Both the position numbers and the translations under genes were made by a program. A stretch of DNA of 64,000 nucleotides from Azolla caroliniana (lineage: Eukaryota > Plantae > Polypodiophyta): assembly GCA_043228905.1 (NCBI GenBank), contig JBHGNT010000015.1, forward strand, positions 11,718,001 through 11,782,000, in the 5' to 3' direction. The notes under the pieces were generated by a model that was not told the origin of the DNA, made no database searches, and saw nothing but the letters and a program-made list of their open reading frames with translations. Below, one piece after another: positions 1-64,000 of the stretch (positions within the stretch are counted from its first letter, which is position 1; the number at the start of each line of letters is the position of its first letter).

Positions 1-3000
1 CGGAGGGAGATCCAGGCGGAAGGTGACATCATTAATCTTCCCCGTAATACGGAAAGGACCGAGTCGTCGATAATCCAACTTGTCGCACGGTCGAGTAGTC
101 TTGATGTGACGACGTAAGAGCCATACTCGATCTCCGATGGCAAAAGAGGAGGGAATCCGATGACGATCCGCATAAGTCTTCTGTGTGTGTTGAGCATGAC
201 GAAGGTGAGTAGAGAGATCCATCTGGATCTTGCGTAGCCTCTCCAAATGGTCCTCGGCACGAGGGTTGGTAGGTAGCTCCGGAGTGTCGATCACCGACCA
301 GCGAGGATGGAAACCGGTATAAGCGAGAAATGGGGAGACCCGAGTCGAGGAGTGAATAGCATTATTATACGCAAACTCCGCAAAGTGGAGAATCTCGGCC
401 CAATCGTCCTGTTGATAACTCAGGAAACACCGGAGATATTGCTCCAAGGTTTGGTTTGTTCGTTCCGCCTGTCCGTCAGTTTGAGGATGGTAGCCGGAGG
501 AGAGGTTGCAGGAGACCTTGAGCATCCTGAAGAGATGCTGCCAAAATTTGGAGACAAATTGCGGGCCTCGGTCACTGACAATACTGTCTGGTAGGCCATG
601 ATGCCGAAATACCTCACGCATAACAAGAGCGGCGGTTTCCTCGCTAGTGATGGCTTTAGTACATGGCACAAAATGTGCCATCTTCGTATATCGATCGACG
701 ACGGTTAGGATAGCATCGAACCCCTTCGAGACCGGCAGATCTGTAATAAAATCAAGACAAATAGACTGCCATGGCTTACTTGGAATTGGTAAAGGTTCCA
801 ACAAGCCATATGGATGGTGTCGTGGCATCTTTGCTCGGCAGCAAGCATCACAGGTCCGAACGTAGTCGTCGACAAAACGGCGCATGTGGGGCCACCAAAA
901 AGATCGCTGCACTAACTCCAACGTCTTGGTACTACCGAAATGTCCCACCGTATGGGTGTCGTGACAATGTTGGACGATTTGAAGGCGACAGGAACAATCG
1001 GGGACATATACGCGCTTTTTAAAGAATAACAAACCATCATGATATTCGAATTGTCGGTAGTCAATACCTAGTTGTTGAGACTGAGAACAGGATGCCCGAG
1101 AAGTATCAATGTGCGCCAGGATGACTTGAGCAAAACTATCTGTCTTCAAGGTTGCACGTATGTCATCGGTAATCCGTGAATCCATCGGGGTGTGAAAAAT
1201 CCGCGTCGTGTGCAATCGTGTTGGTCCCAAGATTACTTGCTTTTGATTATCAAATGTTGCGTCACCAGGACGAGGTGCAAGATATGAACGCCGTGATAGT
1301 GCATCTGCTTTTCCTTGCTGCTTCCCCGGTCGATATGTGATTTCGAAGTTGAAACGCGTGAGGAATTGCGCCCACCGAGCTTGCCGTTGATTTAGTACGC
1401 GAGCGTTCTGAAAATAAGCAAGATTTTTATGATCGCTAAAGACAATGACCTGATGTGGAGAGCCCTCTAAGAAATGCCGCCATTGTACAAATGAATCCAC
1501 GATGGCTAATAACTCCTTGTCATGTATTTCGTAGTTGATTTCTGCGACATTGAATTTGCGCGAATGGAAAGCCACCGGATGCAACTCTTCTTTATCGCCT
1601 TGTTGAGAAAGGATGCTACCGAGGGCGAAATCTGATGCGTCGGCCTCCATGATGAATGGTTTGCTTGTATCCACATGAGCTAGAATCGGTGCTGATGTAA
1701 AGGCTTTCTTAAGATGCCGAAAAGCCATATCTGCTTCGATGGACCAAAGAAATGCTTGGCCCTTCTTCGTAAGTTGTGTGAGAGGTAAAATAATCTTCGA
1801 GTAATCCTGTATAAACTTACGGTAGAAGTTAGCAAAGCCTAGAAAACATTGTACATCTCGTACCGACCGTGGAATTTGCCACTCTAGTACAGTTTGGATT
1901 TTAGCTGAATCCATGGCGATGCCCTTTGAGGAGATGACGTAGCCTAGAAATTCCACTTGCTTGCAGTCAAAGCTACATTTCTCTAGCTTGGCATAAAGAC
2001 CATTCTCGCGGAGTCGCTTTAGTACTAATAGTACATGAGAATCGTGCTCTTCCTGGGTCTTCGAATAAATCAAGAGATCATCCAGATAAATGATCAAACA
2101 GATATCCAAGAGGTCTCTGAATATATCATTTGCCATGTGTTGGAAGACTGCGGGTGCATTGGTTAGGCCAAACGGCATAACAGTATACTCGAAATGCCCA
2201 TACCGCGTGCGAAAAGCGGTCTTCCACTCATCTCCCGGTCGGATCCGCACGAGATTATACGCTCCTCGTAGGTCGATTTTAGTAAAAAACTTGGCACCAT
2301 TAACTCGCTCTAAAAGACTTGATATAAGAGGAAGTGCATACCTATTCCGGATGGTGACTTTATTCAATCCGCGGTAATCAACGACAAGACGAAGTGAGCC
2401 ATCTTTCTTCTTGACAAAGAAGATGGGTGCACCGGCCGGAGATTTCGAATGACGGATGAACCCGCTTGCCAAGTTCTCCTCTATGTAGGCTCGAAGGACT
2501 TCTAACTCGGTGGGTGACAAGTTGTAAATTGGTCCCCATGGTGGCTCGGTTCCTGGTTGTAAATCGATGGGACAGTCATAGGGACGGTGATGAGGAAGGG
2601 TACCGGCTTTTACCTTGTCAAATACATCGGCATAAGGATGATATTTTGCCGGAAGTTGTATTGAGGAGTCCTTCTTAATAGTGCTAGAAGGATGTACTGA
2701 TATGGCAAATAGGAACATTGCCTCCTTGGGTCCTTCTTCGCGTAGTTGATGGAGTGAAATGGTCGAAACTCGGTGAGTTGATTCTTGGGGTGGTCGATAT
2801 CGGACTTCTCTTGTTCTCCAATCTATGGCTGGATTATGTAATTCAAGCCAAGGTAATCCTAGGACAATGGGATGCTCTGGACTACTAATTATATTAAATG
2901 ATATTATACACACAAAACTACCTAGGACAACTTGAATGGGTTCTGATTCTTCTACAATATTCCCGGAAGCAATGGGACGACCATCAATGACCACTACAGA

Positions 3001-3246
3001 TGCGGGACAAGGAAGTTTTCTTAAGGATATCTGAGAAGCTTGGGCAAAATTTCGATCCATGAAACAGGAATTAGCTCCGGAATCTAAAAGTGCTAGGACG
3101 GGTACTGGGGGAGTACTTTTAGTACTAACAATGACTTGGGCTAGGAACACATTGCTAACTTGCTTGGAAGGAATGGAACCACTAATGGGCTGTACAGATC
3201 TAGGGCTGCTGTCCAACCAAATGGCTCCTATTTTGGCTGGACTCAA
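1..3246 (-). CDS. pol: Pol polyprotein (protease, reverse transcriptase, RNase H, integrase), open to the window edge
   Basis: LLDSGANSCFMD (~3055-3090), IYLDDLLIYS (~2062-2091), EADASDFALG (~1620-1650), GPF motif near 50. Frame is -1 relative to gag. The ORF track shows no stop-bounded fragments in this frame, consistent with an unbroken ORF. Confidence 0.88.
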   Translation of the reverse strand, partial: MSPAKIGAIWLDSSPRSVQPISGSIPSKQVSNVFLAQVIVSTKSTPPVPVLALLDSGANSCFMDRNFAQASQISLRKLPCPASVVVIDGRPIASGNIVEESEPIQVVLGSFVCIISFNIISSPEHPIVLGLPWLELHNPAIDWRTREVRYRPPQESTHRVSTISLHQLREEGPKEAMFLFAISVHPSSTIKKDSSIQLPAKYHPYADVFDKVKAGTLPHHRPYDCPIDLQPGTEPPWGPIYNLSPTELEVLRAYIEENLASGFIRHSKSPAGAPIFFVKKKDGSLRLVVDYRGLNKVTIRNRYALPLISSLLERVNGAKFFTKIDLRGAYNLVRIRPGDEWKTAFRTRYGHFEYTVMPFGLTNAPAVFQHMANDIFRDLLDICLIIYLDDLLIYSKTQEEHDSHVLLVLKRLRENGLYAKLEKCSFDCKQVEFLGYVISSKGIAMDSAKIQTVLEWQIPRSVRDVQCFLGFANFYRKFIQDYSKIILPLTQLTKKGQAFLWSIEADMAFRHLKKAFTSAPILAHVDTSKPFIMEADASDFALGSILSQQGDKEELHPVAFHSRKFNVAEINYEIHDKELLAIVDSFVQWRHFLEGSPHQVIVFSDHKNLAYFQNARVLNQRQARWAQFLTRFNFEITYRPGKQQGKADALSRRSYLAPRPGDATFDNQKQVILGPTRLHTTRIFHTPMDSRITDDIRATLKTDSFAQVILAHIDTSRASCSQSQQLGIDYRQFEYHDGLLFFKKRVYVPDCSCRLQIVQHCHDTHTVGHFGSTKTLELVQRSFWWPHMRRFVDDYVRTCDACCRAKMPRHHPYGLLEPLPIPSKPWQSICLDFITDLPVSKGFDAILTVVDRYTKMAHFVPCTKAITSEETAALVMREVFRHHGLPDSIVSDRGPQFVSKFWQHLFRMLKVSCNLSSGYHPQTDGQAERTNQTLEQYLRCFLSYQQDDWAEILHFAEFAYNNAIHSSTRVSPFLAYTGFHPRWSVIDTPELPTNPRAEDHLERLRKIQMDLSTHLRHAQHTQKTYADRHRIPSSFAIGDRVWLLRRHIKTTRPCDKLDYRRLGPFRITGKINDVTFRLDLPP

Positions 3247-4400
3247 TCATTTAACTCTTCATCTAATTGACTAAGGATTTCAAATTTATTTGAGATACTT
3301 GGGCTATTAGTACTATGAATACTATCTGACACTCTATTAGTACTATTAATACTATCAGACACTCCAAAGGGAAGAATTGACTCGGGTTTAGTACAGGCGA
3401 CGATTTGATTTACCTGTCTTCTTGGCCTATGGGGACAATTGATGGCGATATGTCCTGGTCCACCGCAATAAAGACATAATCGATTGGCACGTCGTCGTTG
3501 CTTTTCTTCTTCCGATAACGGGCCGCGTCGACGCATGGTATCGATCTCCATCGGTGTCGAAGTATTTGCTTGAGGTGTGTCTCGTGCAAACGGTTTAGCC
3601 GCGACTGCGGCGTAAGTGGGCTCTGGCCTAGAGCGTGGTATCTGTAATTGACGTTCTGAACGCCGTTCAAAAAGGCGGTTGTCACATCGAACTGCTCGAC
3701 TGATTGCCTCCGTAAGAGACTTTGGTTCTTCCGGGAAAGTTAGAAGTAGATCTTTGACATCGTTTCGCAAGCCATAGCGAAACTGCTCCATTAGTGCTTG
3801 ATCATCCCAGGGTATATCTGAAGCAAGTAGGCGGAAATCCGCCGCGTAGGCAGAGGCTGGACGATCGCCTTGACGCAATCGCCGGATCTTGTTGATCGCC
3901 GTCCTGATGCTGTCGGTGTCTCCAAAGCAGGCTTTAAACTCACCAATAAAATCTTCAAAGTTATTAAGTAAGGGTGATTGTTTTTCTAGAAGCGGAGCAA
4001 ACCATGCCAAGGCTGAGCCGCTAAGTAGCGTGCCTATTAGGCCGACTCGAGATGCATCAGTGGGATATCGGGAAGGATGCATCTGGATGACTAAGCGTAC
4101 CTGATTAAGGAATCCCCGGAATTGCGAACGCGTTCCATCAAATTTCACAGGAAGTCCAATCTTGGGCTCTTTATGAAATCCTTGGGGACTAGATCCTTGT
4201 TGTTGCAACGCTGCTTCGAGTTGTTGTACCCGTAACGCTAACTCCCCATGTTGTTGTTGCGTTTGTTGTTTTTCTAGAGCGATTTGTTGCAGATCCCCTA
4301 TCAGCCGTTGGTTTTCTTGTTCCAGGGCAACAAACTTTTCTTTTAGGCACTGTAGCTCGGAGAAAACGGATTGGTATTCTTGGGCGCTAACAGTAGCCAT
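3243..4400 (-). CDS. gag: Gag (N-terminal coiled coil, Ty3-type capsid, CCHC knuckle)
   Basis: 385-aa ORF with KFDGTRSQFRGFL, LSGSALAWF, LRQGDRPASAYAADF, PMEID and CLYCGGPGHIAINC. Confidence 0.93.
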   Translation of the reverse strand: MATVSAQEYQSVFSELQCLKEKFVALEQENQRLIGDLQQIALEKQQTQQQHGELALRVQQLEAALQQQGSSPQGFHKEPKIGLPVKFDGTRSQFRGFLNQVRLVIQMHPSRYPTDASRVGLIGTLLSGSALAWFAPLLEKQSPLLNNFEDFIGEFKACFGDTDSIRTAINKIRRLRQGDRPASAYAADFRLLASDIPWDDQALMEQFRYGLRNDVKDLLLTFPEEPKSLTEAISRAVRCDNRLFERRSERQLQIPRSRPEPTYAAVAAKPFARDTPQANTSTPMEIDTMRRRGPLSEEEKQRRRANRLCLYCGGPGHIAINCPHRPRRQVNQIVACTKPESILPFGVSDSINSTNRVSDSIHSTNSPSISNKFEILSQLDEELND

Positions 4401-4469
4401 AGTATAGGGAAAAGGGTAGGAGGATGAGGGAGAGTGACAAGTAGGCTAGAGGGACCAATTGGTTCAAAC

Positions 4470-11714: not shown

Positions 11715-12156
11715 TGTTGTCTGCCGGAATAGAAACCGACGGACAAGACCGCAAGAAAACGGAATAGTACAATATTGTAACGCATGTAATGGTTCACGCA
11801 GGAAGCATGAACGGCTAAAAGACCCTGCGTATATAAAGGGAAGAAAACCTCTGATAGAGGTAGCGTGTAATTTTGGAATGTAAGAGGCGTATTGTAATAG
11901 AGTTCTATCTTCTCTGATATCTGTGTGTAGCTACGGCTAATCTACTATGTGTCTGTAACACTTGAGAGCGTAGGAGTAAGTAACGGTGTGTGCGCTATCA
12001 AAGGAGCTCGGTTGTAGCCGTCTCCTTTATACGCCGCTAGAGAACGGGGAATATCCCACTAAGTATTACGCAGAGACGCTACCATTCGTTGTCACACAGT
12101 CCCTTGGAGGTCTAGGTCGAAGGACTGACCTTACACCGTGTTCCTAGTCGGTAACA
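11715..12156 (+). repeat. 5' LTR (442 bp) of Athila/Tat-like copy 1
   Basis: TGTTG...TAACA; TATATAAA at ~11830; followed by the PBS; homologous to the reverse complement of 60468-60907. Confidence 0.85.
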
Positions 12157-15100
12157 CTTTTGGCACGCTTGGTGATTTGTGTTTTATCACAAACGAACAA
12201 CGATGAATGGATGTTTAGCCGCAGACGCCCAAGAGAACCAACACGACTAGACCGGTCAATCACAAGGTCCATCACACGCCAGGCAGAGGAACGCGCACGG
12301 CAAAAGCCTCACCTCAGCGACCTCAGCACTACCTGTCAGGACCACAAAGGTGATTTCCCGCTCTCCAAATACCTCAACGATATGCGGGAAGCACGCTCAC
12401 CACACCAACACTGTGGTCTTTCCCTGCCCGTCGTAGCCCCCAGCATGGCCTTTGCCTTTCCGCTTTAATGGCGAAACCAACGCCGCAACCCACATTCGCC
12501 TGTTCCTCAATGTCTGAAATGCAAACCACATGGCGCAGAGCCTTTCTAAGGTAGTAGCGCACTAGTCCAAAATGACGGAGTTCGGGTTAACATTGGATGG
12601 GTGAGCGGCGTTTTGGCATTCACAGATGGATCTACTAGCAATCACGACATTCGACCAGCTACAGTCCGCCTTTTTGCGATTCTTCCATCGGAGGGTTCCA
12701 CAACGTGAAATCCTTGGACAGTTCTATAAAATTAAGCAGCTGCCGACCGAGACGATCGCGGATTTCAGCTTACGTTTCCAAAATTTACGGCGAAAACTAG
12801 AACAGGGAGGATGAGGCTCGAGAGACATTTCTGGCGGCATTACGCCGACCAATACGGACCACGCTCAACAACAATAGCGTGAAAGGGGAAACGGCCGATA
12901 TGGTCATCAAACGAGCATTACATCTCGAGCTGGATGACGAAGAGGAAAGGTTTTCTATGTCCTCATTACGACAAGCATTACCTCAGGATGAGGAACGACA
13001 TTTTCGTCAAGCAATCCAGTGCACGATTTGCTTGAATTCGGGGCATTCCGCGGTGGAGTGCAACATGCGAATCCACTGCCCAATCTGTCACTCGAAGGCT
13101 CACACAGTTGAGCAATGCGAATACAATATGCTGAACAAAGCCGCTCCCACAGTATGCAACATGGACACACAACGTCCCCCACACCGTACTGAACAGAGGA
13201 AAGAAGATCGACCACGGTATATGGATCGCAACCCACGTGACGACCGGCACTACCGGAATCACCAGAATCACAACTATTCCGAGGAAGATGAGCTAGAGGA
13301 TGAGGACTACCGTGGTCCCCCCAGATATGCTAAAGGGGGCCGGCGCTATGAGAATCATTGGCCGACAAACAAACGTGGCGGCTTCAATGGACCTCGTGGA
13401 AAGCAGTGGCAATATTGGGACCACAGGCGATATGACGAAAGCTCAGACGATGACCGGCACCAAGAACCACGCCGGGACCAACAGCAACCACCGCGTACGC
13501 TCCGACAAACGAAGCCGGACCGTGAGGAGCAAGTCACATCGAGGGGTCGGCACACACCACCACGGGCCAAGAAGGGCGAATCTAGCATCCATTGTTTTGT
13601 TTGTCAACAGCCCGGACATTATGCCACACAATGCCCAGTACGTAAGGACAAGGGGCCTGCTGTCAATATGATTACGGCAGAAGTGCAGCAAGTCACGACA
13701 CGTCAGCAAACAAAAACGACAGATTGGGCCGCGCAAGATGAGATACGACAAACAGCCTAGGCATGGGTTGAGAAAGCAAATGCGACAAATACAGAACGCA
13801 TGCAAAAGGAATCCGCAAAATTGATGGAGCTAGTGGAGGACGAAGGACCGGCCCCGGACCCCATTTGGATCGCATTGGCAAGCTGCGAGATAACGTTAAC
13901 CATGGAGAAGCTGTTGCAACTAGTCCCACGCTTCGACCAGACCGTGGAAGAGCGGGTGACGGGCATACCCGGGGTGAGCGTCGCTACGAATTTCACGGAC
14001 ATTAGTGATGGACCGTCTGTAGTGGATCACCACAACCCGGCTATTACGTTGATATTACATGGTCAGGAAATCCCGGGATGCGTAATCGATGGCAGCTCGG
14101 GCGTTAATGTCATTAACGCGAAAACATGCGAGCAGTTAGGAATTTCAGAATGGAAGGCTTGCCCGTTCTGGCTCCGTATGGCAGATACCCGCTCAGTACA
14201 ACCATTGGGGTTGATACGCAAGGTAGGCATTATCGTGGGAGGACATCGCTTCGACATCTCGGTGGTAGTCCTCGTCCTGGACGCCCCAGGGGCGTACCCT
14301 ATGCTGTTGGGCAGACTGTGGCTTCGTGCAACGAATATCAAGCAGAGCTGGCAACACAAGTGTATAAGTTTTCGACATGGATGCACCAAGGTTCGCATAC
14401 CAACGGAGGAAAGGGCGACACAATCCAAGGGTATAACACCATGATACGTGGAAGATATAAATATGTTGGCTGGGGTGGATGATATAGAATTAGAGGCATA
14501 CCTAGACGAGCACCCTCTGATTATTCTGCTATTCGAAATCGACGTCATCGCAACCGCGGCAGAATATGCCACAGCCACTACTCTCCATGACAAGGCTTAC
14601 GAACCAAACCCGGAGTCAATATTAGAACTAAGCCGAGCACGAGCAACGTTCGAGAGGGAAATGGAAATTTCACGACGAGTCACCGCCTCAGCCCTGGAAG
14701 AAGTAAACATGGGTACAACGTCAGAACCTCGTTTCCTCTCCATCACAAAAGAGTTAAGGCCGAACCAGAGAGACGCGATGATCGAACTACTCAAGAAATA
14801 TAAAGATGTGCTCGCCTTGGCTCACGAGCACATGAAGGGGTTAGATCTGAAGTTCTATCAACATAAGATTAATTTAGCAACCGAAACAAAACCAGTCCAG
14901 CAATGTCACTACCGCATGAACCCGAACTACGCGACCCGCGTAAAAGAAGAAATTGACAAACTTCTAAAGTCAGGATTCATACGGCCAGTTAAACAAGGCA
15001 CGTGGTTAAGTCCGATAGTAGTCGTTCCAAAGAAAAACAGCAAAATACAAGTATGCGTGGATTACCGAAAATTAAACGTCGTAACCATTACGGACGCATT

Positions 15101-15437
15101 CCCTTTACCATTCACCGATAGCGTATTGGACGTCGTTGTAGGGCATGACATGTACAATTTTTCAGATGGCTTTAGTGGATACAACCAGGTACACATGCAT
15201 CCCGATGACCAAGAGAAGACGACATTTGTCACGGACTGGGGAGTCTATGTGGCAGTCGTCATGATGTTCGGGCTAAAGATGGCGCCGGCGACATTTCAAT
15301 GGACAATCATGAAGATCTTTGGGGAATATATTCTAGCATTCATGCAAGTTTTTTTAGATGATTTTGCAGTATATGGGAAAACAACCGACCATTTTACGCA
15401 TCTGCAACTGTGCCTGGAACGTTGCCGCACCACACGC

Positions 15438-16246
15438 TGTCGTGAAGAAAACCGTCCATAAGCGGAATCGGCAGACCAAGGCGTGGGAACCGGTTCCTCA
15501 CGCGCGCACGCTCCAAGTCGAACATAGAAGCGAGTTAGGAGGATATTCGGCAGGAACGGGCCCTAACACGAGTGGAGACAAAGACCGCGCGAACAGTCTT
15601 TTCGGTCGTGCGCGCGAGCTAAGGGACGGCACGAGTCGGCGGCGTAACTACGCGTATGCGTGAAGAACGGAGCGGATCCCTGTTCGAAAGGGACAGGGGA
15701 TAAAGCTGACATGACGGCCTGCTCGTCGAGATATATAAGGAACAGGAAAGAGCTGTAAAAGAGACATCGCGCGGAGAGGACGAAGTGCTGCCGGACCGTT
15801 TCTGGACGCTTCTCTCTCTCTGTTTCCTTCCTTCTTGAGCTCCATAGCTTTCTGTGCAGGGTTCCGAGGAGGCTCGCGCTGTTTCGAGGAACGCCCGAGT
15901 GCTTCCGGCAGCACCTCCAACCTGCTACCCCCCCCCCCTTGCCCTGTTTTGTGCCTCGAAGCGAGCAGGCATCGGCATCTGTTCGCCGGCCTGTTCGGTT
16001 GTAACCAACCTGTGCCCCATCGAGGGTTGTAGTAGTGTTAGCCATTTTCTTAATATACATATTAAGTCATTCGCATCTGTCTGTGTCGGTGTCTGTTCGC
16101 GTTCTCCGTGCTGAAGGGCCGTGTCCCTGTGTATCCCCGGTCCTGCGTAGCCGGTTCTCTCTCTTTCTCCTCCCTCGCTTGCTCTTTGGTTCGAGACCCC
16201 CGCGGTCCCGCCTCGATTCCACACGCACTTGCGTAATACCTCGACA
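15438..16246. mobile_element. Solo LTR (809 bp) inserted in the RT domain
   Basis: TGTCG...CGACA termini flanked by ACGC on both sides. Removing it restores ERCRTTR-LSLNPVKC. Confidence 0.9.
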
Positions 16247-17622
16247 ACGCTTAAGCCTGAATCCCGTAAAATGTGCCTTCGGTGTTACCAGCGGGGCTCT
16301 CCTAGGCCATATAGTCAAGAAGGAAGGGATAGCGGTCGATCCGAACAAAATCTCCGCGATTACTCAAGCTAAAACTCCGACAAATGTGAAATCACTTAGC
16401 CGGTTTTTAGGACAAATACGATGGCATAGTCGGATGATACGATACTTTGCGGACTTCGCCACGTCGTTACAGGCTGCCGTGCATCGGACTCCCTTCCAAT
16501 GGACTGCAATGGAAGACAAGGCCTATGATGCGCTCAAGATAATGCTCACGCAGGCACCCATTGTATAGCCACCAGTTTGGGCGAAGCCATTCCATGTGTT
16601 CGTAGACACCTCGCACATAACAATAGGAAGTGCACTAATGCAACTCACTGAACCGAATTGGTACCGGCCAGTGTACTATGCTAGTCGCAAATTATCAACA
16701 GCGGAGCATAACTATTCCACAACGCAGCGTGAGGCATTGGGGATGATCTATAACATCAATAAATTCCGGCATTATCTACTAGGGAGGAAGTTCACGTTCC
16801 ACGTGGATCATTCGACACTGCTGTATTTGGTCGAGAAACAAGCACTGACGGGGAAATTGGCACGATGGATGCTGCTGCTTCAAGAATTTGATTTTGTAAT
16901 TCAATACAGCTTGGGTACGCAACACGTAGTGGCAGATTTTTTTAGCAGACTCGATAATGGAGAAATGGCGCAGAAGGACGACGACGACTTTCTAGACGCA
17001 GACATTCTGCGGGTAGCAGCACTAGCTGGAAGAACGGAAATGACCTTTCCGGACCAGTGGCTCATGGAAATGTCATACTTTTTTACTACGAGACTGCCTC
17101 CACCACAATTACGCACGGACGAGAAGAAACGATTAGCCGTCCGGAGCCGTAACTTCTGCCTGGTAGAAGGAATCTTATATCACAAAGGTAGTGATGGCAT
17201 TTGGCGACGCGGAGTACGCCAGGATGAGAAAGAAGCGGTCTTACGGGAGGCTCACTACAGCACGATAGGCGGAAACTACGCAGGCGATGTTACGTCCCGG
17301 AAAATATGGCAAGCAGGCCTATGGTGGCCGACTACACAGAAGGACGCATACAAGTATTGTAGAAAGTGCAATTTGTGTCAATGGATGGGCCAACCCACGG
17401 AGGGTGCAAAAATGTCACACCAGCTCGTATTACCGTTAGATCCCTTTCAAAAGTTGGGATTGGATTTTGTGGGCCCCTTCACACCGCCGGCAGCGAAGTG
17501 GGTAAAAGCAAAGGCACTACGAGAGAATACGGCGGCCGTCACAGCGAGATTCCTTTACGAACACATCTAGTGTCGGTTCGGTTGTCTGATTGAGCTTATC
17601 GGTGATCAGGGGAGCCACTTTC

Positions 17623-20600
17623 TGTTGGGATTTCGGTCCCTTCGGATGGGATGGTCGGATGTCGGAGACGAATGCCGACAAGCCCGGTTTCGGTTTCGGA
17701 TCCGGATGACGAAGACCCCGGCTTCGGTGCCGGATGACGAATGTACCCGGAGAGCGATCCGGATGCAGGGACATATCCGTGAATATGTTCGCTATGGGCC
17801 CCTGAGGCCACAGTTGTAAATAGCCCCAAAGTCATATGTGTATAAATATGACTTAGGGCAAACTGTTTTGTTGTTGCTAATTATTTTTCTGTTTTTCCAC
17901 TCAAGAGGAGTGAAGAGGGAGCAGCCGTGAGAGAGAGAGAGAGAGATAGAGCGCGAGAGAGGAAGAGGTAGACGCCTCTGTGTATTTCCGCCGCCTGTGG
18001 CGAGGACAGCGACCTCAAGGTCGTCGCCTTGGAGCTCGTCATTGTATACTTCTCTTTGTATAGTGTTGTTTGGAGTCTTGTACTCCCGTGGTTTTTCCCG
18101 TCTAGGGTTTTCCACGTTAATCCCTGTGTACTCGCGTTTTGATTCTCCGTGTGGTTCCTATTTTCTGCTGCATTGATCCGCGATTACTCGGTTGTGGCCG
18201 AGGGAAGAAGGGGAATCGAAGCGCTGTTTTCCCAACAAACTGGTATCAGAGCGACTGTTGCAGAAAATGGAAGGCGGCGGCAGCGGGCAGCCGATGATGA
18301 TGGTGCTGAATGCACAGAATTACGCCGACTGGAAGATCAAGATGGAGGATCTTCTGATTGTTCAGGACCTGTACGAACCGATTGACAGGTCGGAAATACC
18401 GAAGGGGGTACTTGAGTCGGAGTGGAAGCTCCTGAACCGGAAAGCCGTAGCGACGATCCGACAATATGTCGATGTAAGCGTCCTACAACATGTGGCGAAC
18501 GACACCAACGCATATGAGATGTGGAAGAAGCTGTCGGGCCTCTACGAGAGGAAGAATGCGTTGAACCGGACCTCTCTGATGAGGAAGATAGTGAACCTCA
18601 AGTATCGGGACGGCGAGAGTATGGTTGAACACGTAAGCACGTTCATGGGATTCGTGAATCAGCTTGCGGCGATCAAGTTCCCGTTGGAGGATGCAATGCA
18701 AGCCATCATCCTGATGTGTACATTGCCGGAAAGCTGGGAGAACTTGGTGGTGACTCTCAGCACCTCCTGCACAGAAGATAACTTGTCCTTGCAAACGGTA
18801 AAGACAAGTATTTTGAATGAAGAAGCGCGTCGGAGAGATAAGGAACCGACCTCCGACCCGAAGATGTTGTTTACCGAATCGGATCGGGGAAGACAATGGA
18901 ACCGGAGTCCGCAAAGACGGGAGAAGTCGGGGACCCGGTCGCAGTCAAGAGGAAGACCCACATGCTTCCACTGTGGGAAGCCGGGGCACTTCCGAAAGAA
19001 TTGTCGGCATTACCGAAAAGACAACGGAGCCGACGACACCGATTCGAAGAAGTCACCGGAGAGAAACGGTGCATACCGGGGAGCCACGGACCGAAGAGGT
19101 TCGGATCGGCGAGGGCAGGACCGGAAAGGAACAACGGCACTCGCGGGAAGTGAGGAAGAAATCATGCTCATCACCGAAGAAGGTGAGCTAAACGTTGCCG
19201 GCGATGAGACGACCTGGGTGGTCGATTCCGGAGCATCGTTCCACCTGACCCCGGAGAGAAGATACTTCTCATCCTACACAGCCGGTGAGCATGGCTGTGT
19301 TCGGATGGGAAATGAAGGTACGTGCCGGATTGCCGGCATAGGTGACGTGTGGTTGACAACCCCGACTGGATGCAAAATGCTGCTGAAGGATGTCCGACAC
19401 GTTCCGGAGGTTCGATTGAACCTGATTTCGGCCGGGAGGCTAGACGATGAAGGCTACACAGGTAGCATCCGGAACGGCGTAATGAAGTTCAGCAAGGGGA
19501 GCCTGATAGTGGCTCGGGCCCGGAAAGACAACACACTGTACCTGATGAATGCCCGGTTATGTCCGGAAGAGTTGAATGTGGCAGCCGACACTGCCGGTGA
19601 GCTGTGGCACAAAAGACTGTGCCACATGAGTGAGAAGGGGATGAAGAGGCTTGCAGAAGACAACCTCATCCCAGTGAAGCATGTGCACCTGGAGAAGTGC
19701 ACCGATTGCCTGGCCGGTAAGCAGAACCGAACCTCCTTCCACTCAAGGCCACCGACGAGACGTAGCGCACCATTGGAGTTGGTGCACACTGACGTGTGTC
19801 AGGTAGAGACGAAGTCACATGGCGGAGCCCAGTACTTCGTAACATTCATCGATGATCATAGCCGAAAACTGTGGACGGCACCTATGAAGACAAAGGACCA
19901 AGTGTTGTGCGTCTTCAAAGAACTCCACGCGAGAGTGGAAAGGGAATCCGGCAAGAAGCTGAAAGCGATACGAGCGGATAACGGAGGGGAATACCGAGGG
20001 CAGTTCCAGGAGTACTGTCGCTCGAAGGGAATCCGACATACGTGATAAACAGATCACCCTCAGTACCTTTGGACGGAGACACGCCGCAGAAAGTGTGGAC
20101 CGGTAAGGAAGTGTCCTACCGGCATCTGAAGGTGTTCGGGTGTCTCGCATACGTGCATGTGGCAAAGGACCGGAGAGGAAAGCTAGATCCAAAGACCCGG
20201 CCATGCATATTCCTCGGTTACGGCGATGACGAGTTCGGCTACCGAGTATGGGACCCGGTCGACAAGAAGATATTCAGGAGTCGAGACATCATCTTCATGG
20301 AGGACAAGACACTCGCCGACTGGGAGTCGGAGAAGAAGGTGAAGAGCTCCAAGTCGACCGGTAATGATCAACTCTACGAGGAGCAGTCCCGACCGGCAAG
20401 GGACCGGTTAGCACTCGAGGATCCGGCCGAAGACGGTGAAGAAACAGAACCGGCCGAAGAAGATGAAAACGATACCGGAACCGGCCCCGATCCCGAAATG
20501 GATTCGGATGAAGAAGAATCGGAAGAACCGGTTACCGAAGCTCCGGAACGGAGATATCCTCTAAGAGAGAGAAGGGCCCCCCGGAGATTTCCGGAACCAG

Positions 20601-22823
20601 AGCACGTGCTGCTAACCGACGAGGGGGAGCCGGAGAGCTTTGAAGAAGCAAAGCATGACACCCAGAGCCGCAGGTGGTTGAGTGCCATGCAGGACGAGAT
20701 GGATTCCCTGCATGAGAACCACACATATGAACTTGTGGAGTTGCCGAAAGGAAAGCGGGCACTTCGAAACAAGTGGGTGTTCAAGCTGAAACCGGGAGAT
20801 GCCGGAAACCCCCCGAGATACAAAGCCAGGATCGTGGTGAAGGGGTTTCAGCAAAAGAAGGGCGTCGACTTCGACGAGATATTTGCCCCGGTAGTGAAGA
20901 TGACCTCCATCCGGACGGTGCTGAGCATAGCGGCAAGCATGGACCTCGAGGTAGAACAGATGGACGTGAAGACGGCATTCCTTCACGGTGACCTCGATGA
21001 AGAGATCTACATGCAGCAACCGGAAGGATTCGAGAAGAAAGGGAAGGAGCACCTGGTATGCCGGTTAAAGAAGAGCCTTTACGGACTGAAGCAGGCTCCC
21101 CGGCAATGGTACCGGAAGTTCGACTCCTTCATGACCGACGAAGGGTACCTCAAAACGCAGTCCGACCACTGCGTGTTTGTGAAGAAATTCGAAGGAGGAG
21201 ACTTTCTAATACTCCTCCTGTACGTGGACGACATGTTGATCGTCGGACGGGACCAGGTCAAGATACGGATGCTGAAGAAGGCTCTTCACCGAACCTTCTC
21301 AATGAAGGACCTGGGTCCGGCGAGGCAAATACTAGGGATGCACATCATCCGGGACCGAAAGAGGAAGCAGTTGTGGCTGTCACAGGAGAAGTACGTGACG
21401 AAGGTGCTTCACCGGTTCAACATGTCGGAAGCAAGACCGGTCGGATCGACCCTCCCGACAAACTGCAAGCTGTCCAAAAAGCAAAGTCCCAAGACAAAGG
21501 CTGAAAAGGAGGATATGATGAAAGTGCCATATGCCTCAGCCGTCGGGAGCTTGATGTACGCCATGGTGTGTACGAGACCGGACATCGGATATGCAGTCGG
21601 AGTGGTGAGCCGGTACATGAGCAATCCCGGCAAGGAGCATTGGAACGCGGCCAAGTGGATACTCCGATACCTGAAGGGCACGGCAAACGTGTGCCTCCGA
21701 TTCGGCTCCGGTAAGCCCGAACTCGACGGCTTCACCGATTCGGATATGTCGGCTGATGCAGATACCAGCCGGTCCACATCAGGGTATGTGATGACGTATG
21801 CAGGGGGAGCTGTTTCATGGCAGTCGAGGCTGCAGAAGACGGTTGCGTTGTCAACCACGGAGGCGGAGTACATGGCGGCTGTTGAAGCCGGCAAGGAAGT
21901 AATATGGATGAAGGACTTCATTAGAGAGCTCGGTATCCGGCAGGAGGAGTACCAACTCTACTGTGACAGTCAGAGTGCAATCCACCTTGCGAAGAACGCG
22001 GCCTATCACTCCCGGACGAAGCACATCCAGCGAAAATATCACTGGATCCGGGAAAGGATAGAAGACAAGGAGTTCGTGCTGACAAAGATCCACACGGACG
22101 AGAACGGGTCGGATATGCTGACCAAGGTCCTCACACCCGACAAGCTGGAAGCATGCCGGAAGAGGATCGGACTGGAAAGACATCCCATGCCGAAGTGAAG
22201 GGGGAGTTTGTTGGGATTTCGGTCCCTTCGGATGGGATGGTCGGATGTCGGAGACGAATGCCGACAAGCCCGGTTTCGGTTTCGGATCCGGATGACGAAG
22301 ACCCCGGCTTCGGTGCCGGATGACGAATGTACCCAGAGAGCGATCCGGATGCAGGGACATATCCGTGAATATGTTCGCTATGGGCCCCTGAGGCCACAGT
22401 TGTAAATAGCCCCAAAGTCATATGTGTATAAATATGACTTAGGGCAAACTGTTTTGTTGTTGCTAATTATTTTTCTGTTTTTCCACTCAAGAGGAGTGAA
22501 GAGGGAGCAGCCGTGAGAGAGAGAGAGAGAGATAGAGCGCGAGAGAGGAAGAGGTAGACGCCTCTGTGTATTTCCGCCGCCTGTGGCGAGGACAGCGAGC
22601 TCAAGGTCGTCGCCTTGGAGCTCGTCATTGTATACTTCTCTTTGTATAGTGTTGTTTGGAGTCTTGTACTCCCGTGGTTTTTCCCGTCTAGGGTTTTCCA
22701 CGTTAATCCCTGTGTACTCGCGTTTTGATTCTCCGTGTGGTTCCTATTTTCTGCTGCATTGATCCGCGATTACTCGGTTGTGGCCGAGGGAAGAAGGGGA
22801 ATCGAAGCGCTGTTTTCCCAACA
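17623..22823 (+). mobile_element. Young Ty1/copia LTR retrotransposon inserted in the host element's integrase
   Basis: 615-bp LTRs at 17623-18237 and 22209-22823, two substitutions by eye. TSD CTTTC, PBS TGGTATCAGAGC (initiator tRNA-Met) at 18241, PPT GAAGGGGGAG before the 3' LTR. Confidence 0.97.
18267..22198 (+). pseudogene. Copia gag-PR-INT-RT-RH polyprotein broken by one frameshifting deletion in the integrase core
   Basis: ORF 18267-20045 (CFHCGKPGHFRKNC, VVDSGAS, WHKRLCH, LVHTDVC, IRADNGGEY) and ORF 20042-22198 (YKARIV, QMDVKTAF, LYVDDML, DSDMS). The usual TPQxNGVAERxNRT segment is absent at the junction. Confidence 0.92.
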
Positions 22824-23675
22824 CTTTCTCAATATGGTCGTTCGTGAACTAACACATCATTACGCCGTAGTCCACAAGAAAAGTACGCCATATTATCCAT
22901 AGGCGAATGGGTTGGCGGAGTCCACCAACAAGACGTTGCAAACCATATTAAAGAAAATCGTCAATGAAAATAGAACATATTGGGATACCAAATTACATAG
23001 TGCGTTATGGGTGTATAAAACCAGCTACAAAACAAGCATACAGTCAACACCGTTTCGACTAGCGTTTGGGCTAGAGGCTATTATGCCGGTAGAGTTTTAG
23101 ATACCCAGTTTACGGATTCAAGTACGGGACCGACTATCGGAAGCCAAGTCGGAGGAAGTACGGCTCCACCAGCTACTCGAACTCGGTGAAACATGCGTAC
23201 ACAGCATGGCTGTGTTGGAGTAGGAACAACAACGGCGTAAAGCGATTGTGGATCGACATCGGAATGTACGAGAAAAGGATTTCGCGGTCGGTAGAGCGGT
23301 ACTGGTTTTCCAAACCCGCATGGGCCATATGCTAGGAAAGTTACGATTCCGCTAGACAAGCCCGTACTGGATAATAGGAGCGGAACAAGGCACGTTCCAA
23401 CTAGGCACGTTGGCCGGGGAAGTCTTACGACAAAAGGTGAATGGGTTTCGCCTTAAACCTTATCTGGGACCTACGCCACCTAACCCATTCCCCGCCAGAT
23501 AGGACAAAGCCGAAGAACCCGCGGCGTAAGCGGACGGCCCTACTTGTAGCATAGTGTAAAAATAGGCTTGTATGTAACTGTTACGAAAAAAAAAGAAAAA
23601 GAGAAGATAACAATGCTATTAAAAAAGGACTGAATGCATGCACAAACTTCTAGACCAAGAACACGCGACACCACG

Positions 23676-26125
23676 ATGGCTCACCGCCCAATGAACCCTA
23701 GGCCACAAAAAGAAGGAAATAGAAGGTCTTCTTCACAATACAGAAATCCACCTCCTAACTCTCAGCGCTCTCATCGCTCCCCTCTCTCACCTTCTCCTCC
23801 ATCCTATCACAGAGCTCAAACCCACCGCAACCAACAATCTCCCCCCCACGAGCCTACTGTGACTATGCCGATATTTATCTCTACCGTCTTACGTCGATGG
23901 CTCGTGGAGAAACGCTTGGATGGGTACATCAAGGTCGCAGAGGCACCTCCACACCCGGATGCATTTGACATCGCCAGAAAGTGCAACATCGACACGGTCA
24001 CCAACTCATCCATCCAGAAAAAGTTAGACCTGTCATCCCTAGGGGAAAGGCATTTCGAAATCCCTCCTCCGGAGTCACTGCAGAGATATTTCGGTCCATA
24101 TTCGTCCTTCGCCAAGGCATATAGGATGAAGGAGATCCTGGATCCCTTTTACGCGAAGTTGCCAAGTTCCTATTAGAGGTTAGATGCGTACATGTAAACG
24201 CATATGGCATGCCCAAGCAGAAGGTAGGTATCATTATTGATACCTTTAAAGGGTGTACGGTCAATTGGGGGGTCATCACAGGGCCAACGTTAAGGGAAGG
24301 CCTGCACGCGTATCAAGGAGGCAAGAAGCTCAGGCCTATCATACAACAGTACTTGACGTTACTATTCCCACCCCAAGGCCTGCCGGCACCGTAGCCCAGG
24401 AGGCCCACGTCGCCGCCTCGATCCGCGAAGCGCAGGTTAGCGGAGTTAGCCACCACAGAGTGGGAGGATAAACCCCAACCCGTCCATCCGGACACACGGA
24501 CAGTGCCGGAAGAGCAGGCGCTCCGAGGAAGCGGCACCAGAGCTAGACGCCGAACCTCGACAGGAAAGCCCTAGGCCGAAATAGCAGAGGCTGGACAGGA
24601 AAGATGGGCGAGGATTAGTTAAATTCGTACTCCTGGCAGTGGAGACCACGACCGCAGGCGACGACTCCGCAACTACGGAGCCAAACACCACCTTCGAAAT
24701 AATCCGGGAGACACGGCTGATCATTACGGCCCAGTCACAACGAGGGAAAGCCGTATTGACGACGGAAAGCGAGGTCTTGGCATACCTGGATATCCCGGAC
24801 ATGGCCCATGAGTTCAACGCACTATTACAGTTCGAAACCTCTTTTGATCTCATGGAATTCTTGGCAACGCAACAGATAAAGGTCTCATAACGAATGGCCT
24901 AGGAGCACGCGGAGCGCCAAATGATCGAGCCAACCTTAACACAAACGGCGGAGAGTGACGATGAGGACCAGTTAGCCAGAGTCGGCAAACGGAGGAACGC
25001 CAATATACACCGAATGGGGATGGAACTACCCCCATTAAACACGACCCTAGTTGAAGTTCATAGGGAACTGGCAAAGGTCAGCATGGGCGCCAAGGAGATG
25101 GCCATTAAAAATAAGAATGTCTGGAAGAAGGTTAAATTGACCCAAGGCGAACTGCAAAAAGCCAACGAACGCATCGCGGAGTTGGAAAATAACGCAACTA
25201 TGGCACAACGGGCAGCTCCACCACCAAACAACGCCATCAAAGCCTTGAAGGAAGAGATTGAGGCTCAGACCTCCATTGCCTCAAAAGCAAAACAGGTCGT
25301 ACAACTAGCGGAATCAGAAATTGACCGCCTCTGCGCTGAACTTTGCCAGTCCTTAGACAGGGAAAAGGACATCTGGGCCAACGGCCGAAAAGCAGTAAAA
25401 ACCCTTGAAGAGAAACTTTTTGCGGAGACAACACAGCATACACGGACAAAAGAAGAAAACGCCCAATTACGGGAGGAAGCGAAAAAATCGGAGGCGGAAA
25501 CCGCGGGACTCTGGGCCTTATTGGAGAAAAAGAAGGCATGGTTCGACAAGCAGCTGGTGGGCGAATAGGAAAGAAGGCATTAGCTCGAAATCCGCCTGAA
25601 CAATGAAATGGGAAAACTAGAAGAACTACATGCGAAGGAATCCTAGCTGTGGGTGGGTATGAAGAGCACGTATGAAGAAGCGGCGGCAGTTAGTTAGCAA
25701 GAAATTGCAAACCTCAAGAAGTCTGTGGAAGAAGCATGCAACCGTTGCCAGGCCATCACAGACAACGTGCGTATCCTCCTACAAACGAATCGGGAGAGGT
25801 TTACGACGCAATTGAAAACGGCGCTAGACAAAGGATGGATGGCGTGGGCGGCACAAGGAGTGGAATTGCACGCGTATCGAGCGGACTGGGAGAACCGGAG
25901 AAAAGATGACAGAGGCTTCTATAAACTCAATAAGGAAAGCATTGCGGCGGTATGCGAGGACCTAACGCAAGACTATCGTACGCTAGCGGACCAACATTCT
26001 GAAGAACTCGCGCAGCTATTAGATGATTTTGGTGAAAGTTAGGAGGATCTCTTTGACCAGATCACGCAAGCCGGTAGCACGCGAACAAACGGGGAATCCA
26101 TCGCGATACCAATTCCGGATACCGT
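23676..26125 (+). pseudogene. Extra 3' ORF of the Athila/Tat-like element (Pro/Ser-rich N-terminus, globular region, long coiled coil), disrupted
   Basis: Colinear and highly similar in amino acids to minus-strand ORFs 62738-63841, 62012-62725 and 61730-61963 (e.g. MAHRPMNP, RRWLVEKRLDGYI, KEMAIKNKNVWKKVKL). Confidence 0.8.
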
Positions 26126-60467: not shown

Positions 60468-63400
60468 TGTTGCCTCTTAGGAACACGGTCCATGGTCAGT
60501 CCGTCGACCTAGACCCCAAGGTGAGTGGGAACAACGAACAGAGCTTAAGCGTACTGCGTAAGAAGAGAACCGTTGTGGTTCCTCCGTGTGTAAGGGGAGA
60601 CGGCTACAACCGACTCCTTATCACAGGTTGCGCTTACGTACTACTACGCTTACGTATCCGAGACACAGACACTGAATTAGTCGTAGCTATACATAGAAAC
60701 TCAGAGAAGATAGTATTCTATTATCAGGCGTTCTTTTACAATTCTCAAAATTTACACGCACCTCCTTAAGAGGTTTTCTGCCCTTTATATATGCAGGGTC
60801 TAATTAGCCGTTCACGCGGGGAAGCGTGAACCGTTACATACGTTACGCTTTATATAGTTTCTTATTCCTACGCTTTTGGCCGTCGGTTACTATTCCGGCG
60901 GACAACACCTGGCACGCTTGTGGGACAGTGCCTTTGCACGTCGGACCCATCCCGTTAATCTTCTTCCAAAATGCCCCAAATGTTTGGCTCTGTTGTGGTG
61001 TCCTCGGCCGGAGTTGATGTAGGGCACGTATGTGTATCGTGGTGCGGCTCCTCTGCTTGGTCATCCTGGTTTCTCCCGGAGTCGCCTTCGCCGTGTGCGG
61101 GTGGTCCAGGTACGGTGGGCTCTTCTTGAGTTAGTGGGCTGGCCTCCGCCGGTAGCGTGCTTGCAGTCGGTTGTTGCTCCGCCTCTATTGTTACATCCTC
61201 CGTGTTGTTGGCCGTTTTTGTGTGTCCCTGGGTGTGGGGCGGGGATTCCGCTTGGTCCGCACTATTTTCCGCGTTTTCTGAAGATGGTGTGGGCTGGACC
61301 TTTTGTTGGTTAATGGTTTCGATGTCTGGTCTTGTGGGTGACTCCGCTCGTTCGTCCCCGCTATTCTCCCCCGTTGTCCTCGCTGGTGATCGGGCCTGAG
61401 GTTCCTCTTCTTCGGATGTGACCGGAATTGGTGTCCCATTGGGTTCCTCGTTTGTGTGCGTGTTGCCGGTTTGTGTGATCTGGTGAAATAGCTCCTCCTG
61501 ACTTTCACCAAAATCATCTAGGAGTTGTGCGAGTTCTTCGGAGTGTTGGTCTGCTAACGCGCGATAGTCTTGCGCAATGCTCTCCTCGCTTAGCTTATAA
61601 AACCCTCGGCCGTCTTTCCGCTGCTTGGGTTGCCCATGCCATCCATCCTTTGTCCAGCGCCGTTTTCAATTGCGCTGTGAACCTTTCCCGGTTGGTTTGG
61701 AGAAGGATGCACACGTTATCCGTGATGGCCTAGCAGCGGTTGCATGCGTCTTCCATCGACTTCTGGAGATTTGCGATTTCTTGCTGTTTAACGGCTATCG
61801 CTTCCTCATACGTGGCCTTCAGGCCCACCCACAACTGGGATTCCTTTTCATGCTGTTTTTCTAATTTCCCCATTTCATTGTTTAGGCGGATTTCGAGTTG
61901 ATGCCTTCTGTCTTGTTCGACTACCAACTGTTCATCGAACCATACCTTCTTTTTTTCTAACAAGGCCCGAAGTCCCGCTATTGCCGCCTCTGATTTCTTC
62001 TCGTCCTCTCGTTATTGGGCGTTGTCATCTTTTGTCCGGATGTGCTGAGCCACCTCCGTAGCCAATTTCTCTTCAAGCGTTTTTACGGCTTTTTGTCCGT
62101 TAGCCCGTATCTCCTTTTCTCTGTCGGAGGATTGGCGTAGTTCTGCTCGAAGACGGTCAATTTCGGATTCCGCTAGCTGCACGGCTCTTTTTGCTTTTGA
62201 GGCGATGGCGGTCTGAGCCTCGATTTCTTCTTTGAGAGCGTTGATAACGTGGTTCGGTGGCGGGGTTTCGTGTTGCGCCGTAGTCGTGTGAGCTTCGAAC
62301 TCCGCGATGCGTGCGTTGGCCTTTTGTAATTCGGCTTCGACCAGTTTAACCTTCTTCCAGACATTCTTATTTTTTATGGCCATCTCCTTGGCGCCCGTAC
62401 TGACCTTTGCTAGTTCCCGATGGACTTCAACTAGGGCCGTGTTTAAGGGTGGTATCTCCATCCCTACTCGTCGTACCCCGACGTTCCTCTGTCTGCCGAC
62501 CCTGGCTAGCCGGTCCTCATCATCGCTCTCTGTTGTTTGTGTTAGGGCGCGCTCTATTATCTGACGTTCTGCATGCTCCTCGGCCATTCGTTGGGCGGCT
62601 TTGACCTGTTGTGTTGCTAGGAACTCCATGAGCTCGAAAGAGGTACCGAACTGCAAGAGGGCGCTGAATTCGTGGGCCGTATCCAGAATATCCAGATATG
62701 CCAAAACCTCGCTTTCCGCCGTCAATACTGCTTTCCCTCACTGGAACTGAGTCGTAATAATCGGTCGCAGCTCCCGGATGATTTCGAAGGTAGTATTCGG
62801 CTCTGCTATTGCGGGGCCTTCGCCTGCTGTCGGTGCCTCCGGATCCGTGGGGGCGTTTTTTACCAACCCCCGCCCATCTTTTCTGTCCAATCTATGCCGT
62901 TTTGGTCTAGGGCTTTCCCCCCGTGCTTCGGTGTCTGGTTCTGGGGCTACCTCCATGGGGTGTCTCGGCTGTTCCTCCTGCGTCACCCGTGTATCCGGTT
63001 GGTCGGTAGGAGGTGTTGTCCTTGGGCCTGGTTGGGCCAGTTGGGGTTCCTCCTCCCACTCTCGGGCCGCTAACTCCGCTAACCTGCATTTCACGGAGCG
63101 GGGCGGAGCCGTGGGTTGGCTGGGTTGTGGTGCTGGTAGGCCTCGGGGTGGAAACAGTACTGTAAGGTATTGTTGGATGATTAGCCTGTGCTTTTTGCCT
63201 ACTTGGTACACATGCAAGCCTTCCCTTAACCCTGGCCCTATGATGACCCCCCAGTCGACTGTACGCCCCTCAAAGGTGTCGATAATGATGGCCACCTTCT
63301 GTTTAGGCATCCTGTAAGCGTTGACATGGACGCAGCCTACTTCCAGTAGGAACTTGGCAAATTCACGGAAGAAGGGATCCGGAATCTGTTTTGTTCTATA

Positions 63401-64000
63401 GGCTTTGGCGGAGGATGAGTATGGACCAAAATACCGCTGCAGCGCCTCTGTAGGAGGTTTTTCGAAATGTCTTTCGCCTAGTGAGGATAGGTCTAACTTC
63501 TTCCGAATGGAAGAGTTGGTGACCGTGTCGATGTTAAGCCGCCTGGCGATGTCCATGGCGTCCGGGTGCGGAGGTGCTTCTGCGAACCGAATGTAACCAT
63601 CCAGACGCTTCTCCACGAGCCATCGGCGTAGGGCAGTAGAGATGAAGATCGACATCGCCAAAGTAGGTTCGTGGAGAGGAGACGGGTAGCAGTGGTGAGT
63701 TGGAGCTCTGAGATGTGATGGGGAAGAAGGTGAGGAGGAGCGATGGGAGCGTTGATAGCTAGACGCTGTGTTTCTGCTTTGTGCAGAAAACCTTCTATTT
63801 CCTTCTTTTTGTGGCTTAGGGTTCATTGGGCGGTGAGCCATCGTGGTGCCGCGTGTTCTTGAACTAGGAGTTTGTGCATGCCTTTACTCGTTTTAATAGT
63901 CGCTATCTTCTCTTCTTCTTCTTCTTTTTTTTCATAACGGTTAGTTACCCCCTATTTTTACATTAAAGTACAATTGGGCCTGTCCCTTTTATGCTGCGGG
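60468..64000 (-). mobile_element. Athila/Tat-like gypsy element, copy 2: 3' LTR (60468-60907) and extra 3' ORF; the rest is outside the window
   Basis: The LTR is the reverse-complement homolog of 11715-12156. The interior is colinear with 23580-26120. Confidence 0.9.
60950..63841 (-). pseudogene. Extra 3' ORF of copy 2 (roughly 900-950 codons when intact)
   Basis: Consecutive ORF pieces from the ATG at 63841 separated by single stops; homologous to 23676-26125. C-terminal end uncertain. Confidence 0.78.

Follow-up and report, generated by a model that had tools for sequence, protein, structure and literature searches.

In current teaching, LTR retroelements cannot do without the polypurine tract (PPT) as the primer of their plus strand, and it counts as a hallmark of retroviruses and LTR elements; Ty1 also has one. 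The locus described here raises the question of what starts the plus strand of a retrotransposon in which the place next to the 3' LTR is taken by a tRNA site in inverted orientation. An earlier note on this DNA had offered three readings: that a tRNA primes both strands, that a CCA-ending tRNA mimic in the element's own RNA serves as the plus-strand primer or pairs with the primer-binding site (PBS), or that the element replicates from the transcript of either strand. Throughout, the window is the whole stretch of 64,000 nucleotides that was analysed, and positions refer to it.

Two broken copies of one Ty3/gypsy family

A single Ty3/gypsy family is represented in the window by two copies, both of them broken: copy 1 lies on the + strand and copy 2 on the − strand (Table 1). 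The LTRs at 60468-60907 and 11715-12156 are inverted homologues (72.6%), and so are the segments 61422-64000 and 23518-26118 (75.8% over 2.6 kb), the copy-1 part of which comes after the integrase. Copy 2 begins at the window edge (64000) with the end of pol, followed by the extra ORF and then by the LTR: since this order is colinear with copy 1, the LTR at 60468-60907 is a true 3' LTR and there is no rearrangement. A PBS was looked for past the far end of this LTR, and none was found. The extra ORF of copy 1 is cut at 26118, and copy 1 is therefore without a 3' LTR here; the two ends of the family in the window belong to different copies that are 73-76% alike, and neither copy is full-length.

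The copy-1 gag-pol is split by a copia element (17623-22823) and by a further insert at ~15.5-16.2 kb. The latter (15445-16290, in the RT gene) is bounded by TG...CA and is perhaps a solo LTR of another family. The copia element sits in the copy-1 integrase and has 615-bp LTRs that are 99.7% identical, a tRNA-Met-type PBS and a normal PPT; its insertion is recent. Elsewhere in the window there are a further gypsy element, whose pol is long and open and which has an SH3 domain of the Tf2 type (1-4445, − strand), and, at 37.5-38.7, 42.9-44.5 and 35.4-36.3 kb, palindromic 20-bp TAGCTA-rich satellite arrays and an 83-bp tandem repeat. The extra ORF has no match in Pfam, and an Atlas match to the plant mobile domain (0.81) is a lead only. 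Although fast-evolving, this ORF retains ahead of the tRNA unit (60958-60990) a C-terminal motif of the type EPxILxIFxD-stop, which a pattern written post hoc recovered in sense in 45 of 89 sequences and in antisense in 0 of 89.

Table 1. Positions of the features of copies 1 and 2 in the window.
Feature	Position	Strand	Remarks
5' LTR, copy 1	11715..12156	+	TG...CA ends; inverted homologue of the copy-2 LTR
5' PBS, copy 1	12161..12174	+	14 nt, 4-nt spacer; matches the 18-nt tRNA form
Predicted 6-bp hairpin after the copy-1 PBS	12176..12193	+	T12177-A12192 pair is C-G in most copies
CGAAC box, copy 1	12194..12198	+	complement of tRNA T-loop 53-57
gag-pol, copy 1	12449..23520	+	gag, RT, RNase H, integrase; broken
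Extra ORF, copy 1	23634..26118	+	sense; cut before its 3' end
3' LTR, copy 2	60468..60907	-	TG...CA, 440 bp; CAACA at 60903-60907
Spacer, tRNA CCA equivalent to LTR start	60908..60909	.	2 nt, CC
Inverted tRNA site	60910..60926	+	17 nt, TGGCACGCTTGTGGGAC; occupies the PPT position
4-bp hairpin	60928..60939	.	interrupts the tRNA sequence between positions 59 and 58; covarying from family to family
Complement of the tRNA-Arg T-arm 5' half (58-49)	60941..60950	+	two wobble positions in this copy
Extra ORF 3' end, copy 2	60955..61665	-	sense; terminates in EPNIWGILEED-stop just before the tRNA unit
Extra ORF 5' part, copy 2	62012..63883	-	broken; no Pfam family

The order RT-RNase H-integrase after gag, the TG...CA ends of the LTRs (read from two different copies) and the tRNA PBS after the 5' LTR are all Ty3/gypsy traits; the usual Ty3/gypsy PPT before the 3' LTR is absent, and the PPT is not a classifying trait. 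No chromodomain was found after the integrase in the copy-1 gag-pol or in the Pfam labels of P0031 and P0145-P0147, and there is no archaeal-type RNase H (PF13456/PF00075) in the frames of the window or in P0145-P0147, so that the element does not belong to Tat. The nearest named integrases (~40% identity) come from Riccia, pine and angiosperms and are of non-chromovirus types. In a quick integrase tree of 95 of 125 rows (21 aRH rows and 9 of insufficient length omitted; no REXdb references or true outgroup), the lineage lies outside the 100-supported angiosperm clade that holds the Athila-ORF1 row and outside the aRH-bearing clade, and groups loosely with liverwort and unnamed rows (SH-aLRT 89-93). 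By these sequence traits the element is a non-chromovirus Ty3/gypsy retrotransposon.

The inverted site and the split tRNA-Arg unit

The stop codon of the copy-2 extra ORF (60955-60957) is separated from the 3' LTR by 47 nt, the final 19 of which are the reverse complement of CC-TGGCACGCTTGTGGGAC. There is no purine run in these 47 nt: the last 15 nt ahead of the LTR are CACAAGCGTGCCAGG, whereas the corresponding place in the window's copia element is taken by an ordinary PPT, AGTGAAGGGGGAGTT. The + strand at 60910-60926, which is the minus strand of the element, complements positions 76-59 of tRNA-Arg with one tRNA base unmatched, and is one G short of the 18-nt form found in true PBSs of other families (L005 and others). 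The absence of a PPT and the inverted tRNA site 2 nt outside the LTR had both been claimed in the earlier note, and both are borne out by these observations. Its further claim of an exact match to the copy-1 PBS stands only in part: the 11-mer common to the two sites has exact matches in the window at these two places only (the shuffle control allowed 2 mismatches and is uninformative), but the match depends on the T at 60918. Most copies have C at this position (83-98% of depth in all four runs considered below; 77 of 92 metagenome loci), and since the T is thus a minority allele the 11-nt identity is partly coincidental.

The assignment to tRNA-Arg made in the note holds as well. The D-loop motif together with GTCCCAC has 22 matches in viral and prokaryote collections, 12 of which are tRNAs according to ARAGORN; all 12 are (non-plant) tRNA-Arg and bear the T-arm seen in the unit, and L138 has the C that is missing from the element's site. 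A tRNA gene with the exact D-loop and acceptor end was found in neither of two scans, and looser scans gave non-plant tRNA-Arg only; the 3' end assumed for the host's tRNA-Arg derives from 18-nt PBSs found in other elements together with tRNA-Arg genes of non-plant origin.

The conservation of the junction was studied, independently of any motif pattern, with contigs of four public runs from four studies mapped on 60780-61080 (1484, 1262, 1410 and 257 contigs, respectively). Depth runs unbroken from the LTR through the site, and contigs that span the junction with at least 31 nt on either side are present in three runs (X1, X2, X4); the loose end listed at the copy-2 LTR start has no common sequence (agreement 0.39). 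As no loose end is listed at the copy-1 LTR start, this direct view of the 3' site does not extend to the copy-1 subfamily. Between 60880 and 60949, the variants listed are at 60909 (spacer), 60918, 60933 and 60935 (hairpin loop).

When metagenome contigs were scanned for the pattern of the site, 120 loci were obtained, 92 of which combine the 2-nt spacer with the 17-nt form, with C at position 9 in 77 and T in 15; these 92 were chosen by motif, 91 of them belong to one assembly series, and one (L090, on a 688-kb contig and without T-arm) is likely a chance match. The 17-nt form is present at 97 loci, 92 of which have the 2-nt spacer; in 24 of these 97 the extra ORF is on the strand opposite the site, and gag or pol of this lineage was found downstream of the site on the same strand in none. 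The flanks of the site-bearing loci form 27 clusters. Nine contigs carry the site, the LTR and the sense PBS on a single LTR; they may be assembly collapses across the LTR, and they show that the two junctions go with the same LTR families. The 18-nt form at L005 and L069 is the true PBS of a different family. An LRR receptor kinase on L048 indicates that the hosts of these loci are land plants, probably seed-free ones, and viral contigs scanned for the junction motif, the extra ORF and the RNase H-integrase protein gave no match.

Two further groups of loci can be recognized. L017, L023, L045 and the 14- and 5-member clusters have short LTRs, a weak PBS (8-10 nt) and an intact 3' unit, with neither a CGAAC box nor a coding match to the lineage, and are possibly non-autonomous partners. 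L008, L026, L030, L043, L050, L081, L097, L098 and L109, all on long contigs, show LTR-end-AAT followed by an 18-nt tRNA-Arg PBS; none matches a gypsy or copia query, and they represent an unrelated element group.

The earlier note described the site incompletely: it included neither an upstream T-arm half nor a hairpin that covaries, and the like construction of the 5' PBS had escaped it. In element sense the order is tRNA-Arg 49-58 (5' strand of the T-stem plus T-loop), the hairpin, tRNA-Arg 59-76 with the CCA and with one C missing, 2 nt, and the LTR. The T-arm 5' half (49-58) lay outside the scan pattern, and yet in 70 of 73 sequences at least 7 of its 10 positions agree with tRNA-Arg. By an anchored count the hairpin is 92% paired, versus 78% (maximum 84%) in 2000 partner shuffles, one spacer length having been fitted and the identical fit applied to the shuffles; one of its pairs is found as T-A, G-C, C-G and A-T, and the next as G-C and A-T. 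In the raw MAFFT alignment A1 (for which 5 of the 92 loci were dropped as too short, 14 as identical to another, and L090), the hairpin of one family is moved by a column and 72.5% are paired; the covariation score, a statistic that ignores relatedness, was reached in 0 of 500 shuffles. With the majority letters at 60933 and 60935 the hairpin at 60928-60939 becomes fully self-complementary, as in L119, L071 and the largest cluster, and a role in dimerisation is possible.

Two clusters also retain the D-loop: L067 and L032/L066 have CTAATGGATAA at 89-98 nt from the CCA, and in L067:44-160 and L032:941-1050 the D-loop and part of the tRNA-Arg acceptor 5' strand persist upstream. These remnants are the best trace of a whole captured tRNA. 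A candidate acceptor 5' strand upstream in one cluster (ACGCCT) was rejected: this sequence belongs to the last part of the extra ORF, and the clusters do not have it in common.

A parallel design can be recognized at the 5' end. In ten PBS regions the tRNA match is 8-14 nt long; GTG is present at PBS positions 12-14 in six, as in the 18-nt form, and the spelling of the 3' site at position 12 in none. CGAAC occurs at PBS position 32-34 in seven regions (five distinct sequences; chance 0.6% per 12-nt span), after a predicted hairpin in six of the seven, and is missing from the other three. This box stays CGAAC whatever the 3' variant of the family (ATTCG, GTACG, GTCCG). Pairing with U5 was considered as a reason for CGAAC and is unsupported outside the window's family: among nine regions folded, only copy 1 has the complement core TTCG in U5. 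As CGAAC tracks neither the family's own 3' variant nor U5, its partner would be an outside one, the host tRNA, as for the boxes of Ty1. The spacers differ, with 4-5 nt at the PBS versus 2 nt at the 3' site, and the T at 12169 may be the majority letter (no variant at this position among those listed). Judged by their matches to the tRNA, the 5' PBS region and the 3' site have a similar split layout, each on the strand that would be the template in its priming event.

Candidate primers for the plus strand

According to the sections of PMC13191261 and PMC5371799 drawn on here, the plus-strand primer, with its 3' end, sets the left edge of the LTR, so that some primer must end at the CCA or within 2 nt of it. 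Two candidates would fit, one being a tRNA-Arg of the host, on the minus-strand DNA, and the other a tRNA-like RNA of the element itself. Taking the two together, we consider it probable that this lineage, which is without a PPT, initiates each of its DNA strands at the 3' end of a tRNA, on split tRNA-Arg sites that mirror one another, the first in the RNA and the second in the minus-strand DNA, be it with a host tRNA or with a captured copy. As to the identity of the primer we lean, with some reserve, towards a second host tRNA-Arg that would anneal to the inverted split site on the new minus-strand DNA and prime the plus strand. Priming of both strands by a tRNA is thus the best supported of the three options of the earlier note, with the priming itself inferred from sequence.

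The proposed course of events is as follows. Once RNase H has cleared the RNA, tRNA-Arg would pair through its acceptor 3' strand over ~10-11 nt, as on a short 5' PBS, and through its T-arm to either side of the hairpin, which would be looped out, in the way that the tRNA of Ty1 pairs with the extra boxes. RT would extend from the CCA, RNase H would remove the tRNA with the same cut as for the minus-strand primer, and integrase would trim the 2 extra nt. As for the origin of the unit, one may speculate that a template switch between the inverted LTR termini (TGTTG/CAACA) put a copy of the primer tRNA before U3.

The changes found in the unit bear on the choice between the two candidates. In the majority sequences of the six clusters with at least two members, six of the changes at 49-57 would form wobble pairs with a tRNA on the minus strand and one would be a mismatch; wobble-type changes occur at 49, 53, 55 and 57, and A49 and A53 break the T-stem of the RNA. 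Over all 27 clusters the tally is 24 wobble versus 17 mismatch, a weak one because transitions at G and T are wobble-compatible by default. Position 58 changes in three of the six clusters with at least two members; in tRNA this position is m1A (PMC13191261, in the section covered). In the largest cluster, with 24 of the 73 sequences, position 53 is A, so that in the sense RNA the pair that closes the T-stem is broken. In one cluster a T opposite position 55 is a mismatch to the tRNA. Against a host tRNA, the missing base would bulge one tRNA residue, with no obvious reason for it to be kept, and the minus strand can self-fold over the T-arm complement (T-stem probability >0.5 in 42 of 73), which would compete with the tRNA. 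The hairpin G:U and A:C counts (15 vs 18) give no strand signal, and constrained folds do not tell RNA from minus-strand DNA.

That the element's own RNA primes the plus strand is the main alternative, which we regard as rather unlikely. Once the minus strand is made, the T-arm-like part would refold and escape RNase H, the DNA would retain the 10-nt tail in the manner of a short PBS with its tRNA, and the cut by RNase H would come behind the CCA. The unit in sense reads indeed as the 3' half of a tRNA ending in CCA, the missing base costs nothing, no second tRNA is needed in the particle, the cis-primer logic of the PPT is kept, and the D-loop remnants of L067 and L032/L066 point to the capture of a whole tRNA copy. 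If the last 10 nt are fixed on a partner, folding gives the T-stem in 60 of 73 sequences and both stems in 39; the free RNA, however, forms the mimic in only 19 and the T-stem in only 29 of 73, and for the copy in the window the fold does not surpass that of shuffled sequences (z +1.16). A53 of the largest cluster and A49 (7 of 27 clusters) are mismatches in the RNA T-stem, position 58, which the T-loop requires, varies, and neither ARAGORN on 31 loci nor Rfam on 12 loci recognizes a tRNA or its cloverleaf in the unit. The like design at the 5' PBS is also left unexplained by a primer of this kind. It is more doubtful still that the 3' copy pairs with the element's own PBS, with the RNA circularised (cf. 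CYC5/CYC3 of Ty1) or the minus strand self-primed, and with the plus strand started from an ordinary RNase H fragment at the site. The predicted duplex between the 3' site and the copy-1 PBS region, LTR termini included, has −31.3 kcal/mol, Ty1 requires 5'-3' pairing near its PBS (PMC3592414, in the part consulted), and such pairing could coexist with either priming model; but the precise LTR edge is left unexplained, and the covariation of the 5' and 3' sites across families that the earlier note had proposed as a check is absent from the ten PBS regions. The 5' box is fixed as CGAAC, and the PBS keeps the G that is missing from the 3' site, i.e. the spelling of the tRNA and not that of the family's 3' site, which weakens the idea of a mimic that pairs with the PBS.

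Replication from transcripts of either strand, with one PBS each, finds no support and is highly improbable. A TGGCAC site does follow both LTR ends, each on its own strand; all coding, however, is on one strand, the two sites are unlike in spacer and length, so that ORFs, spacers and site lengths are all polar, and an antisense genome would still require a plus-strand primer. We give equally little credit to the idea that the copy is an isolated rearrangement or chimera, or that the match arose by chance. The two window ends do come from different copies, with no full-length element between them, but the colinearity of copy 2 with copy 1 and the junction-spanning contigs of X1, X2 and X4 contradict the chimera with an inverted LTR-PBS that the earlier note had considered, and the site recurs in the 27 flank clusters and, with LTR and PBS on one LTR, in the nine contigs.

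Relation to known elements

These results can be compared with what is known of other elements. In the sections of PMC5371799 and PMC13191261 that cover it, Ty3, as a canonical Ty3/gypsy element, shares with the present lineage the gag-PR-RT-RH-INT order, TG...CA LTRs, a tRNA-primed minus strand and a short PBS, which in Ty3 is not refreshed from the tRNA, a feature that fits the drifting PBSs seen here. Unlike the present lineage, Ty3 uses a purine PPT of 12 nt to start its plus strand; the second segment by which it binds the tRNA is located in U3 and acts on RNA for the minus-strand primer (PMC5371799, PMC13191261, same sections), whereas the site described here is outside the LTR, of opposite polarity, and in place of the PPT. 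The extended PBS of Ty1 consists of a 10-nt PBS with Box 0, Box 1 and Box 2.1, plus CYC5/CYC3 (PMC3592414, in the part consulted): the likeness lies in a short acceptor-stem PBS with nearby boxes for other tRNA segments and in a possible 5'-3' pairing, the difference in that Ty1 belongs to the copia superfamily and uses tRNA-iMet, on RNA only and for minus-strand priming only.

Among plant elements, Athila, Tat/Ogre/Retand, Phygy and Selgy are likewise without a chromodomain, a tRNA-Arg PBS is used in non-chromoviruses, and OTA elements have a sense 3' extra ORF as here (PMC6317226, in the passages covered). Tat differs from the present lineage by its archaeal RNase H, and Phygy and Selgy, by their descriptions in the same passages, are set apart from it by its greater length and long extra ORF (PMC6317226). 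In the portion of Neumann et al. (2019; PMC6317226) considered here, most plant non-chromovirus Ty3/gypsy elements have a PPT and no inverted site is described; the PBS strings were not found in the part of the supplement text covered. Tf1/Sushi and Tcn1 self-prime, so that, as with a primer from the element's own RNA, a cis-supplied primer replaces the canonical one; in Tf1 and Tcn1 it is the 5' end of the RNA that replaces the minus-strand tRNA, while here it is the PPT that is replaced (PMC6317226, as far as covered). Capture of CCA-ending tRNA copies in a gypsy element is known from Culex cqgypsy_1, where, in the part of PMC3286476 consulted, the tRNA dimer is at the 5' end (PBS region) of one family, is read as an insertion and is not linked to plus-strand priming.

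Full-text literature searches, with subscription papers outside their coverage, turned up no description of an element in which a tRNA site stands in for the PPT. C. elegans Cer7 (BEL/Pao) reportedly has near its 3' end a tRNA-like primer that matches its PBS, proposed for minus-strand priming; if Cer7 is also without a PPT, it could lower the novelty of the present case. Overall, the inverted site is real, conserved and undescribed in the literature searched; the element is of a known kind, and its replication step looks new.

A successful lineage of several families without a PPT would mean that plus-strand priming can be rewired, and would provide a natural system for studying how RT and RNase H pick an RNA primer on a DNA template. 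LTR finders that depend on the PPT may miss or mis-orient such elements. If the proposed priming is true, both priming steps hang on one host tRNA, and the lineage would be exposed at both to tRNA fragments.
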